Shown here one piece after another: positions 21,924-50,206 of a stretch of DNA of 64,000 nt. Position numbers and translations under genes: made by a program. The DNA is from Octopus vulgaris (lineage: Eukaryota): the NCBI GenBank assembly GCA_951406725.2, contig OX597814.1, forward strand, positions 122,760,001-122,824,000, read 5' to 3'. The notes beneath the pieces are model-generated. The model was not told the DNA's origin and ran no database searches. It saw only the letters and a program-made list of their open reading frames with translations. The stretch's first letter is position 1. The number at the start of each line of letters is the position of its first letter.

Positions 21924-21960
21924 CTAAAATTTTTGTTGCATCTTCCAACCTTTTCAATAG
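21924..21960 (-). ncRNA. Hammerhead motif, U3:A8 core variant, G12 changed to A
   Basis: Reverse complement cta-TTGAAAA-g-gttg(gaagatg)caac-AAAA-at-TT-tag; expected GAAA reads AAAA at a CpG position. Confidence 0.45.
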
Positions 21961-22646
21961 TCGTTGACTCTGTTCGTTATCCGAATTGCGTTCTTTTCAT
22001 TTGTTGTGGGTCAGTGTGAGTGCGCATACACACGTATGTATCTATGTGTGCATGTATGTGTGTATATATATATATATATATATATATATATATATATATA
22101 TGTGTGTGTGTGTGTGTGTTTATGTATAATATATATATGTATATATGTGTGTACGTTTGTATGCATGTATTCTGAATATTCCTGTGTTTGTGTGTATGTG
22201 TGCTTGTTTGCATGCGTGTGCGTGTCTGTGTGTACCTCTGTCTTCTTGTGAGTGCATGTCTGAGTGTGTGTGCGTGTGTACATCTGTCTCTTTGTCAGAG
22301 CATGTCTGAGCGTGTCTGTGTATGGGTTTTTCTGACTATGTACGTGCGTCTGTTATGTTTGGATGTGTGTCTCCAAATGTGTCCTTGTGTGAAGTGTGCG
22401 TGTGTGTATATGGTCATGGGTTTTGCGCATGTATGTGTGCTTCTCTGTTCATATTACCTATGTACCTATCTATCTGTATATCTATCTGTTTACATTCATA
22501 TCTATTTATCTACATATATATGCATATACATATATATACACATATACATATATAGGGGGAGAATTCACAAAAGAAACAAAAGAGGAAGACAGGTGGTGTA
22601 GACAACAAACATATGTATTAGTATAACGCTCGGAAAGTGAAAAAGT

Positions 22647-22682
22647 CTTTAACGTTTCGAGCCTACGCTCTTCAACAGAAAG
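22647..22682 (-). ncRNA. Minimal type I hammerhead motif, position-6 U variant (P1 copy 2)
   Basis: Reverse complement cttt-CTGTTGA-a-gagc(gtag)gctc-GAAA-cg-TT-aaag. Confidence 0.6.
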
Positions 22683-22849
22683 GAACGCAGAAAGAAACAA
22701 GGAGAGAAAATAAAGAATGTGTAGTGGCTACCCATACACACGCACACACAAACACAAACACGCATACATACGTCTACATAACAGCCCACTAACTATTCTA
22801 CCTGTGTATATGAACTGTGAATAAAGGGGTCTGGCTACCTACTACGTAT

Positions 22850-23192
22850 ATTTCGTATTTAATACTGGGGATATTTAATTTATGAGGACGTACTCCTGTA
22901 TTTGTCTGAGTGGTGGGTGCTTGGATAAACTATGGATGTCAAGTTGACCCCAGTTGCCTCCATGCTGGTCTTTGGTATGTTAGTACAGTTTGTCGTCATA
23001 TAGTCTCAAATGTCCATTTAATCTTTCCACAATGCTCCTAGATGTCTCACCTATGTCTATCATGTTCTTGTCTTTACAAGCACCTTCTATGCACTTCATG
23101 CTGTATACTATATTTCTAGTTCTTCCGTTAATGTCAGGGTTAATCCTACATACCATACAATCATCATTGGTGCATGTGGTATTCTCAAAGGG
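22850..23192 (-). pseudogene. PLE GIY-YIG endonuclease remnant
   Basis: CTNDDCMVCRINPDINGRTRNIVYSMKCIEGACKDKNMIDIGETSRSIVERLNGH...LRQIQEYVLIN*ISPVLNTK; two in-frame stops. Confidence 0.8.
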
Positions 23193-23606
23193 GTGGTGGT
23201 TGTGTTGTGCCCATTATTATTGTGGTTATTGCTGTGGGTGGTGTTGATGTGGTTGGTATTGTTGTCTGCGTGTGGAGTGTTGTTGTCATTGTTGTTGTTG
23301 CTATTATCATTGTTATCGTTGTTATTATAGTTGATGTTTTGATTTCGTATGTTTGTTGTTGTTGTCGTTGTTATAGTTCTTTAAGTGGGGAATGTTATAG
23401 TTATCATTGTTGCTATTGTTATTGCCACTATTGTTGTTGTCATTAACATCGCTATTGTTATTGTTTTAGTTTCGTATCGGGTATATATATATATATGTGT
23501 GTGTGTGTGTGTGTGTGTGTGTGTGTGTGTGTGTGTGTGTGCGTGTGTGTGTGTGCGTGTGTGTGGGTGGGTGGGTGTATGTGTATGTATATATGTATAT
23601 ATATAT

Positions 23607-23843
23607 GAGGCGCAATGGCCTAGTGGTTAGGGCAGCGGACTTGCGGTCGGAGGATCGCGGTTTCGATTCCCAGACCGGGCGTTGTGTGTGTTTATTGAGC
23701 GAAAAAAACACCTAAAAGCTCCACGAGGCTCCGGCAGGAGGTGTTGATCCCTGCTGTACTCTTTCACCATTCTAAAGGCGGTGCTCCAGCATGGCCGCGG
23801 TCAAATGACTGAAACAAATACAAAAAAAAAAAAAAAAAAAAAA
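23607..23843 (+). mobile_element. Chimeric SINE: F3-type head + F2 tail + poly(A)
   Basis: F3-like head 23607-23770, then F2 end ctaaaggcggtgctccagcatggccgcggtcaaatgactgaaac, then ~22 A. Confidence 0.8.
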
Positions 23844-46807: not shown

Positions 46808-46857
46808 TACGACCGTTTCTGTTTACCAGTTGTATTTGTAGACATCGTCAGAATGTA
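46808..46857 (-). ncRNA. Degenerate hammerhead motif
   Basis: Reverse complement CTGACGA-tgtctac(11 nt)gtaaaca-GAAA-cg-GTC; stem I poor. Confidence 0.5.
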
Positions 46858-47294
46858 GAGTCATATATAGAGGTAAGAAGAGCGAGAGACATAGGGATAC
46901 ATTGGTAACGAGAACACAGACAAAGAATGGTGAGTCTTACATTATAGTAGATTTCTTAGTTTACCCCTTGAATTACCTGCCATCCAGGTAATCACCGGAG
47001 CTTTTAGGATTTAACCATCCCTTAGAGATTTAAAACACTGCTAAAGTATACCTATATATATATATATACATATATTTATGTATGTAAATATGTATGTAGT
47101 AGAAATATGTTACAAAAAGAAAATAGAAACTACACACGTGAAAATGTAAAGGAAAGGAAGAAGAAAATAAGCGAAAATGCAAATTGGAAATCAAAAAAGT
47201 AAAGGCTTTTTATGAAAAGTTACGATAGATATATAGTTGAACTGAGGTAGGAATAAAAGTAATAAAAGTCATTATTGTGAATTGTTAAAGAGAT

Positions 47295-47337
47295 TCAAAA
47301 CATACCGGTTTCGTAAAATTACTAATCATTGCTTTGA
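47295..47337 (-). ncRNA. Minimal hammerhead motif, A3:U8 core variant
   Basis: Reverse complement tcaaagca-ATGATTA-gta(attt)tac-GAAA-ccgg-TA-tgttttga; 8-bp stem I; just downstream of a GIY-YIG remnant on the same strand. Confidence 0.68.
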
Positions 47338-47534
47338 ATGCACACTGATTACCGAACGGTGTCAGGTCTACTAGTCCCCAAGTAAAAAGATTATGTGTAA
47401 GGGAGATAAGTAGTTCTGGATTTGGTGCAGTTAGGGTAGATATAGATCTGTAATGTGAATGGTGTATAGGATGTATGGGTATTAGTGGTATAATTGAAAG
47501 GTTAGTAGTGTTCTGTATTATGTTATGTGTTCAT

Positions 47535-47890
47535 ATTGAGTTGTGGAAGATATTTATTGATGAAAGTTGTCTCTTTATTCATTCTTTGTTGTACTGAGGT
47601 GTTCTGTGAACATTGATAGAAGGCAAAATTAGGAAATTAGGATTAAGATTCCTAGCACACCTTTCTATGTGTTCACTGACCTGTATCTCTCTGTATTGTG
47701 GGTGGCGGATTTGCTCTTTGTGGAGAGTGGTTCTACGACGGAGTGATATTGCCGTTTGGCCAATATAGTTATTACCACACCCTAAGCATGTGGTGGGATA
47801 TATTATATTTTCCGAGGCACAGGTAACATTTGATTTAATCTTAAATATTTCACCTTGTTTAAAGTGGAACTCTCAACCCTCCAAAAAGGT
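47535..47890 (-). pseudogene. PLE GIY-YIG endonuclease remnant
   Basis: FKQGEIFKIKSNVTCASENIIYPTTCLGCGNNYIGQTAISLRRRTTLHKEQIRHPQYREIQVSEHIERC; 5'-truncated near (TA)n at ~47900. Confidence 0.9.
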
Positions 47891-49937
47891 GGGGATATAC
47901 ATAATATATATATATATATATATATATATATATATATATATATATATATGTATGTATGTATGTGTGTGTGTGTGTGTGTGTGTGTGTGTATGTATGTGTG
48001 TATTCAGTATATAGTGTATATGTATTTGTACGCATGTGTTAGTTCTTGAGTTGTACGAGATGAGAATTAAACGAGCTGTTAACCACATGCTCAAAACTCT
48101 GACTCACCATTTCTTTAATAATATTTAATGAAGTTAAGACGCCTACGAAACCATAAGAAACGTGATTTTATTTTTAACCAAAAGTCTTACTGAATCCTGG
48201 TAGAAGACCATATTGTCTACAGTACCAGATGACTAAAACTGATTGTCATAGCTTTTATACGCGAGTAGCTGTCGTCTATTTGAACCAAATTGTCTGGATC
48301 GTTGTATTTCTTATTGTAAACACACCACGCTGAAATCAACGTTGGGCGGTGAGTGAAAGCAAACAGCAGGATTTAATGAAAATCTCTGTTGCTATGATAT
48401 CACTGAAAATACATAATTTTGTCTGTTTTATATATTTTTGTCGTTTCTGTGTTTCATTTTCTCCATGATGCTTTTTCTACGTTTATTTTCCTCTTCGCCC
48501 CTCATATCCATTATACATACATACGCGCACGCATACACACACACGTGTGTGGGTGTATGTATGTATATGTTTGTGTTTTCGTGTACCATTTAACATATGT
48601 ACAGTTCTACATAATGGATTTTGTAATAAATTATGGTTTTATCGTAGTGAAATATAAACGTTTTTTCTTTGTTTTTTTTTTCTTTTTGAAAATATACCTG
48701 TCATCATTTCTTGTTTACGTAACATCTCTCTTTCCCTCTCTCTTTCTTTCTCCCTCTCTCTCTCTATATATATATGTATGTGTGTGTGTGTGTGTGTGTA
48801 TGTATATGTATATCTTTCTCTAAATATAAGAGCTTATTTTATTGTTCAATATTTTTAGGATAATCCTGACTGAGGTCGACAAATCAAGATAAGAGAAAAA
48901 TTGTGGAATGTCTTGATTAATCAGAGAGAATTCTAATAAATCATATTTAGATACAAGTTAATGAAAACTGCGACGTTTGTAAATAATAAACTTCTTAAAA
49001 AGTCGATAATCATAATTTCATAGCTTCATAAAGTCGATAATTTATAATTTGTCATGAAAATCATTATATTTATAATATATCGTTGTTGAAAATAAAGAAA
49101 ATATGAAGGTAAGCAAAAAATATATTTTATTTTTCAGCTCAATAGACGATTTGAAAGATGTCTGAACATACAGAGTATATAAAAAAGTCGTCTACTGGAG
49201 AAAAACGGCGCAGAGCTATTGAATACATAGTTATGATGTGTAGATATTAATTTTTTTTCATTTAACTTTATTATGGTTTAACCGTAAGAGAAAGTGCAAT
49301 AGTTGTGACCCTTGCCAGCATCTCCAATGCTGATGGGAGAAACAAGACGAGAAACCTGACCTGAATGTTTACAACAGTGAAGATTTTACTTAAAATACCC
49401 AAGGGGACAAGTGATTTTGTTAAAGCAGGTAGCTAATTTAGTACACCCCCACAAGAACAGGAATGGTATTCCAACGGGATTTCCGTAGCTATAGAACAAA
49501 ATATTTGCCCATTGTGCATGGAAATGAAACCGAACCCGAACTTGCATAGTTGTTGAACTAACTTCTCAACTACACATACATTCTTTTCTTTTCTCATTTA
49601 TCTTTTACAGTCATTGAAGTGCAGTCTTGTAGTCGAGCATATCGATCCCAGTACTTTGTTTTTAAGCTTGATTCCTATCGACATATTAATACAAAGTTAC
49701 GGGAGATAAATAAAGGCACATACAAGCACATGTATAAACACACACACACACACACACACACACACACACACACACACACACACACACACGGAGTAGATGA
49801 AACAGGGACATATATTGCATGTCTCGTTTCTCATTGTGTTCAACGTTTTCTATGTCTTGTACCCATATATGCATGTATATATACATATATATGTAGGTAT
49901 GTACATATATGTATGTATATATGCATATATATATATA

Positions 49938-50206
49938 TTTGGGGTACTTAGGTCTGCTCTGGACTTCGTGCTTGCTTTTTCCATGGGTATGAGTAAGTAT
50001 TTCATTGATATCTCGCGTATTTACCGCTGAAGAGGGGAACATTTATTAATTAACCCCGAAATTGGACCAATACGGTAATTACGAATTTTTTAGTGATTTC
50101 TCTCGGTTTGTTTCGAGACGCATAAATTATAATGGTTATTGAAAAGTTTTGTCTTTATTTCGGCATATTTGGCATTAGAATTTTTCTTCTGCCCTTATCT
50201 TGTAAA
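49938..50206 (+). mobile_element. P2 pseudo-LTR single copy between (TA)n tracts
   Basis: Aligns with 44572-44847. Confidence 0.85.
50021..50078 (+). ncRNA. Type I hammerhead motif (P2), all stems intact
   Basis: ttaccg-CTGAAGA-gggg(16 nt)cccc-GAAA-ttggaccaa-TA-cggtaa. Confidence 0.82.

Follow-up and report, generated by a model that had tools for sequence, protein, structure and literature searches.

The window studied here is a stretch of 64,000 nucleotides from Octopus vulgaris (contig OX597814.1, positions 122,760,001 to 122,824,000). It is AT-rich animal DNA, rich in TA and CA microsatellites and in short interspersed repeats. Judged from its letters, it holds minimal type I hammerhead ribozymes (min-HHRs) of several unrelated families of Penelope-like elements (PLEs), lying in the pseudo-long terminal repeats (pLTRs) of these elements. 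The motifs and their carriers are listed in Table 1. Two of the motifs depart from the canonical CUGANGA core by a compensated change of the core pair 3:8. The motif at 41886 has G3:C8 and the motif at 47293 has A3:U8. We argue that these are lineage-fixed compensated cores of slow PLE ribozymes that act as dimers, and we give this joint reading a probability of a little over 0.6. An earlier note on this DNA named eight 7-nt cores, and each of them is present where the note placed it. It overlooked two C3:G8 motifs, those at 45190 and 46802.

The window was searched with our own type I hammerhead descriptor, in which positions 3, 7 and 8 are left free (N3, N7, N8). The control was 100 block-wise dinucleotide shuffles of the window. 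The strict descriptor gives 7 matches and all 7 have a Watson-Crick pair at 3:8, against a shuffle mean of 0.73 matches (0.16 paired). A search with a free N3:N8 pair had been proposed in the earlier note. When G10.1-C11.1 is required there are 5 matches against 0.06 per shuffle, and a score of 13 is reached in 0 of 100 shuffles in that setting. The lenient descriptor gives 15 matches, and the 8 that score at least 13 are all paired at 3:8 (shuffle mean 0.09). The three-helix junction with U4, G5, A6, A9, G12, A13, A14, A15.1-U16.1 and H17 is present at nine sites (41886, 47293, 44417, 44656, 50021, 42598, 44097, 45190 and 46802). By the strict scan helix III is palindromic in the A3:U8 motif, the G3:C8 motif, the 44417 family, 45190 and 46802. 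In none of the window motifs could positions 3 and 17 form a Watson-Crick pair (A/A, G/U, U/U and C/A). This fits a prediction in PMC3884650, but with three variants it is not significant. Rfam at E 10 returned no hammerhead family for the A3:U8 or G3:C8 stretches, and likewise none for the canonical motif at 50021. For the window as a whole, low-complexity microRNA matches were all that Rfam gave among the 150 of 327 matches listed. One strict match, 47601-47643 on the plus strand, is antisense inside the endonuclease remnant described below and has a 1-bp helix III, so it is probably chance.

In the G3:C8 motif position 3 is 41929, position 8 is 41924 and U17 is 41893. An extra G stands between A9 and G10.1. 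The carrier element is arranged head-to-head, with a minus-strand copy from 41950 to 41628 and an inverted, 5'-truncated plus-strand copy from 41951 onward. The plus-strand partner begins inside stem II and supplies the intact 3' arm of this 5-bp stem. The element is interrupted at about 41727-41885 by a high-copy insertion that resembles a short interspersed nuclear element (SINE), with a 17-nt duplication at 41710 and 41885.

The family of this element was examined in Logan contigs aligned on 41880-42100 (80% likeness, 5% share). Four of the 24 listed runs were sampled, with 7,192, 6,253, 2,829 and 729 contigs and organism labels A, B, C and A. Neither 41929 (G3) nor 41924 (C8) has an alternative letter at 5% or more in any of the four runs. 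Position 7 and six of the nine CpGs in this stretch do vary, which shows that the contig alignment can pick up variants. Position 7 (41925) is A at 96.9-99.9%, unlike in the window copy, and the six CpGs have variant rows of 2-17%. The loose-end consensus before the inverted copy is independent of this, and in all four runs it has the G3:C8 core with A7 along with stem I, one extra G and the 5-bp stem II arm. The earlier note asked whether variant cores are the consensus of their families; for this family G3:C8 is the consensus, and not the decay of one copy. If the labels are distinct species, the consensus is older than the divergence of these three. Both C11.1pG12 CpGs are among the three without a variant row (the third, 42072, has lower cover), which is a weak hint that G12 is kept in the source elements. 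Run X1, from which the window itself may come, has a summed depth of about 390,000 over the core, while single long contigs reach 35-55. Depth cannot be read as a copy number, but the contrast points to a family of thousands of copies.

Of the 56 joints in this family 15 were shown, and most of those link 41944/41945 to varied sites at 41979-42046 in the inverted partner. Such an inverted, truncated partner arrangement has been described for PLE insertions (PMC8557442). We infer a PLE origin of the G3:C8 family from the inverted, variably truncated arrangement, since no coding parent is visible: the window was checked for endonuclease and other coding remains, and there are none beside the element. 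None of the window motifs that were searched for occur in the supplement of PMC8557442, and the G3:C8 family is not tied to a Naiad by it.

The G3:C8 copies share a preferred 5' boundary at 41944-41951, and stem I follows some 10-20 nt downstream of it. The loose ends of the family lose agreement at this boundary and not at the predicted cut site, and therefore the core-bearing copies would derive from uncleaved RNA. The boundary may be a transcription start. Depth also rises downstream of the predicted cut site, but the rise is gradual and perhaps a mapping bias, and we do not use it.

In the A3:U8 motif position 3 is 47329, position 8 is 47324 and A17 is 47303. The motif has a 10-bp stem I, a 4-bp stem II closed by G-C and a 6-nt palindromic helix III, and it is otherwise perfect. 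In the strict scan its score is reached by 0 of 100 shuffles. Two copies cofold into a hammerhead dimer whose stems I and III are formed between the molecules, and a dimer is the cofold optimum for this motif and for the 44417 family. The motif lies about 190 nt downstream of the remnant of a GIY-YIG endonuclease that has one stop and one frameshift and is 5'-truncated at a TA microsatellite. The remnant has 57-63% identity to the homologs P0001 and P0002 (tblastn, E 6e-37). P0001 matches Pfam GIY-YIG, and RVT_1 plus GIY-YIG is found in 2 of the 3 long homologs scanned. All 13 homologs over 600 aa have the Cys linker; in the window copy the truncation lies immediately after it. The element is flanked by TA microsatellites at both ends. 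On sequence grounds the A3:U8 motif belongs to a PLE. The earlier note took the carriers in general to be PLEs, which holds for A3:U8 by the upstream remnant and the TA flanks; for G3:C8 it is a conclusion from the arrangement described above. A3:U8 is probably a family-level consensus as well. A search for relatives of the endonuclease with flanking DNA found none among metagenome or viral contigs.

At 2457-2654 the minus strand carries the remains of an older endonuclease, a relative of the A3:U8 family. Downstream of it, at about 2165-2180 on the same strand, there is a GAAA-palindrome-UA segment shared with the A3:U8 motif, with a core that is not parseable.

Table 1. Hammerhead motifs and their carriers in the window
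Feature	Positions	Strand	Basis
Minimal type I hammerhead, G3:C8	41886..41936	-	descriptor and family consensus
G3:C8 carrier element	41628..42094	both strands	self-blast
Minimal type I hammerhead, A3:U8	47293..47339	-	descriptor, best score of the strict scan
Broken C-terminal GIY-YIG endonuclease of a PLE	47529..47893	-	tblastn, Pfam of homologs
C3:G8 hammerhead, arm of the inverted pair 44274-44862	44417..44477	-	strict descriptor, self-blast
C3:G8 hammerhead, other arm of the 44274-44862 pair; one stem I mismatch	44656..44716	+	lenient descriptor
C3:G8 hammerhead, third copy of the 44417 family, ends in (TA)n	50021..50078	+	strict descriptor
C3:G8 hammerhead, U10.1-U11.1 closes stem II, 4-bp looped helix III	42598..42648	-	lenient descriptor
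C3:G8 hammerhead identical to the 42598 motif, opposite arm, ends in (TA)n	44097..44147	+	lenient descriptor
C3:G8 hammerhead between the inverted ends 45005-45105 / 45341-45441	45190..45273	-	strict descriptor
C3:G8 hammerhead, slightly decayed	46802..46857	-	strict and lenient descriptors
Hammerhead-like remnant, U3:A8, extra G	21924..21960	-	core letters, folding

The earlier note also claimed that all eight sites share one layout with GAAA and NUH, and that together they hold all four Watson-Crick versions of the 3:8 pair. The layout stands at seven of the eight. In the site at 21924 position 12 is A (T at 21934 of the plus strand) and hence there is no GAAA, stem I has 3 bp and stem II has a G.G mismatch. 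No descriptor run, strict or lenient, returned the site, and self-blast found no second copy of the element in the window. Nor is it seen to follow a GIY-YIG endonuclease. G12 is the general base of the hammerhead (PMC8495972). It is replaced by A here, and therefore this copy cannot count as a fourth version of the pair, so the set of four is not established. The copy is predicted not to be competent as it stands. It is plausible that G12 was lost through CpG decay. Pattern searches built on the U3:A8 and G3:C8 families gave 0 matches in viral contigs. They gave 33 matches in metagenome contigs, which were rejected: all 33 lack the remaining motif and none is similar to the window.

Among the other motifs, those at 42598 and 44097 sit on the arms of an inverted pair (42579-42982 / 43763-44166) that are 96.8% alike. 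A further pLTR family with the min-HHR layout is found at 17664-17701 and about 22646-22683, with a partial copy ending at 24211, all on the minus strand. It has an extra A, a 4-bp stem II, GAAA and a 4-nt palindrome, and its copies end in (TA)n. Upstream of the copy at 22678, at a distance of about 190 nt, there is a GIY-YIG-like remnant (23165-22870; weak tblastn, E 0.002). All three copies have U at core position 6, and this A6U core would be a second variant invisible to standard searches. A further hammerhead-like motif with C3:G8, at 8051-8100 on the plus strand, is decayed and has one core letter changed. A low-score hammerhead-like candidate with an A3:A8 mismatch and C17, at 12010-12056 on the minus strand, is a decayed motif or chance.

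The layout, its non-randomness, the G3:C8 consensus and the endonuclease link of A3:U8 are observed; the scenario that we build on them is the following. In the source elements of the G3:C8 family both 3:8 partners would have been exchanged together and the product then amplified. The same joint exchange and amplification is probable for the A3:U8 family. Through the palindromic helix III two copies would join as a dimer, and the core of one would cut the NUH site of the other. Cores with purine-3 and pyrimidine-8 would cut slowly. PLEs would tolerate slow cutting because uncleaved RNA is a good template for insertion. A change from C3:G8 to U3:A8 can go via a U.G wobble, of which Fig. S3 of PMC4209133 contains one example. 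G3:C8 and A3:U8 would each require a mismatched step on the way. This step might be crossed via trans-cleavage by an intact dimer partner, or by plain tolerance of uncleaved RNA. The 3:8 pair exists in the active conformation only (PMC3884650), and therefore its compensated retention would imply selection on the active conformation. Selection for cleavage rather than for a kept fold is a prediction of this scenario. One can imagine a bolder version in which the PLE hammerheads of this lineage explored the whole 3:8 space, plus U6 and U10.1-U11.1, as slow but working dimer ribozymes that cross dead mismatches by trans-cleavage. Some of the most abundant ribozyme families in genomes of this kind would then be invisible to CUGANGA descriptors, and "hammerhead-less" PLE clades may hide variants. 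We regard this version as speculative and rather doubtful.

The main competing explanation is that the fold was retained while cutting was not. The variant cores would be fixed in their families as relics or structural motifs, the hairpin would persist because copies dimerise through it or because the PLE protein recognises it, and the 3:8 complementarity would be luck, at about 1 in 4 per family. We consider this unlikely but the alternative most worth taking seriously. The U6 of the 17664 family and the U-U closure of stem II in the 42598/44097 family fit relaxed constraint equally well. PLE insertion in vitro did not depend on hammerhead cleavage, and the same study observed no RNA ends at the cut site (PMC11167929). 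Palindromic helix III lets two PLE min-HHRs dimerise, but their activity in vitro is low (PMC4209133). Unpaired candidates such as the A3:A8 site at 12010 also belong on this side. The earlier note asked whether 3:8 mismatches are as frequent as pairs. None is unpaired among the lenient matches scoring at least 13, but 5 of the 7 scoring 9-12.5 are unpaired and 2 are paired. The shuffle mean for unpaired matches scoring at least 9 is 0.95. These five may be decayed motifs, or the shuffles may underestimate the background; either way the excess counts against a perfect 3:8 pairing rule. In addition, the A3:U8 motif is a single copy, the G3:C8 window copy has a damaged stem II and does not have a dimer as its cofold optimum, and contigs with two further mismatches may align less well, so that a minor C3:G8 subfamily could be under-counted. 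All of these points weigh against our reading. The rival in turn has to explain why each of the two well-supported variants exchanges both letters and ends in an exact Watson-Crick pair, an outcome with a chance of about 1 in 16. The remaining invariant core letters are all retained in both variants. G12 has no variant row in the G3:C8 family despite its CpG position. The natural U10.1-U11.1 closure and A6 change still retain some activity, although it is low (PMC3088659).

Another scenario is that the variants are ordinary C3:G8 copies that decayed after insertion, which we find improbable. The copies are indeed damaged elsewhere (stem II at 41886, the stop and frameshift of the endonuclease, A12 at 21934), and the U3:A8 copy could arise by two transitions. 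However, the four-run family consensus excludes decay for G3:C8. For A3:U8 two specific transversions are needed, which we roughly estimate at 1 in 2,500 per copy at about 10% divergence. Decay should also make single mismatches far commoner than they are among the high-scoring matches (8 of 8 paired). Chance matches in AT-rich repetitive DNA are a very remote explanation, although the site at 21924 and the lenient matches of low score may be of this kind. For the five high-scoring strict matches chance is already refuted: with G10.1-C11.1 required there are 5 against a shuffle mean of 0.06, none of the 100 shuffles attains score 13, and the A3:U8 motif sits behind a PLE endonuclease.

PLE hammerheads cut slowly, and their cutting was dispensable in vitro in one study. 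A natural, family-fixed flip of a pair that is unique to the active fold is evolutionary evidence that this fold matters in vivo. The G3:C8 family and the A3:U8 motif are ready natural variants for testing it. Standard searches would miss the swapped cores because the core letters are exchanged though still complementary. Ribozyme censuses built on CUGANGA therefore undercount, and the G3:C8 family is very abundant.

Several other features of the window should be recorded. An open frame of 240 aa at 59133-59852 on the minus strand is the C-terminal part of a non-long-terminal-repeat retrotransposon with zf-RVT (E 2.4e-5). Judged by its motif, the frame seems to include a restriction-like endonuclease. 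A GIY-YIG-like remnant at 36186-36500 on the plus strand (tblastn E 9e-5) has no hammerhead behind it in the descriptor scans. The decayed stretch at 20940-21560 resembles, by eye and by its motifs, the C-terminus of a Tc1/mariner transposase. A long inverted repeat spans 51617-52165, with arms 93% alike over 553 aligned bases. Head-to-tail arrays of a SINE-like unit of about 185 nt lie at 31134-31920, 32952-33371 and 53301-53888; the unit is of the same family as the insertion that splits the G3:C8 element.

Full-text literature searches, which did not cover key earlier papers, returned no natural G3:C8 or A3:U8 and no octopus hammerheads. Lunse 2017 is said to hold a large catalogue of PLE hammerheads, Przybilski and Hammann 2007 reportedly tested all four 3:8 pairs in vitro, and the descriptor of Seehafer 2011 is said to have admitted any pair at 3:8. 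Single natural cases of G3:C8 or A3:U8 may already be in print. There is no natural G3:C8 or A3:U8 in the accessible text of two reviews, of a paper on Schistosoma repeats, or of two 2026 works, a retrozyme preprint and an octopus repeat annotation (for the annotation, its text and not its library). U3:A8 is already published as a covariant for PLEs, with about 1,300 matches in Schistosoma mansoni (PMC4209133). What is newer here is a natural, family-fixed G3:C8 in a high-copy animal family, plus the A3:U8 case.

The closest known system is the metazoan PLE min-HHRs of Cervera and de la Pena 2014 (PMC4209133), whose hallmarks are an extra nucleotide at 9/10.1, G10.1-C11.1 and a palindromic helix III. 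The window motifs share these and the type I layout. They are also alike in their pLTR site behind a GIY-YIG endonuclease, in being mostly solo truncated copies and in their opposite-strand pairs. Fig. S3 of that paper has 56 rows, of which 53 are C3:G8, 2 are U3:A8 and 1 is U3.G8; G3:C8, A3:U8 and cephalopods are absent from these rows, and the family logos are illegible. Perreault et al. 2011 (PMC3088659) describe a natural U3:A8 covariant, closure of stem II by U10.1-U11.1 and a changed A6. In its accessible text the pyrimidine-purine swap alone is reported, whereas the purine-pyrimidine flips of the window need a mismatched intermediate. The A3:U8 element resembles the Neptune-type PLEs with a C-terminal endonuclease (EN+) of Craig et al. 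2021 (PMC8557442) in its C-terminal GIY-YIG, the Cys linker of its homologs and its TA-microsatellite flanks, and inverted 5'-truncated partners are likewise found in the window. Its clade is read from homologs alone because the window copy is truncated just after the linker, and the G3:C8 element has no coding remnant in the window to compare. The most direct comparison is with the hammerhead of the anole Poseidon PLE (Frangione et al. 2024, PMC11167929). There cleavage is lost with C3G alone and with G8C alone, and part of it returns in the double mutant. In the anole element G3:C8 was engineered and is partly active, whereas here it is natural and fixed in a high-copy family.

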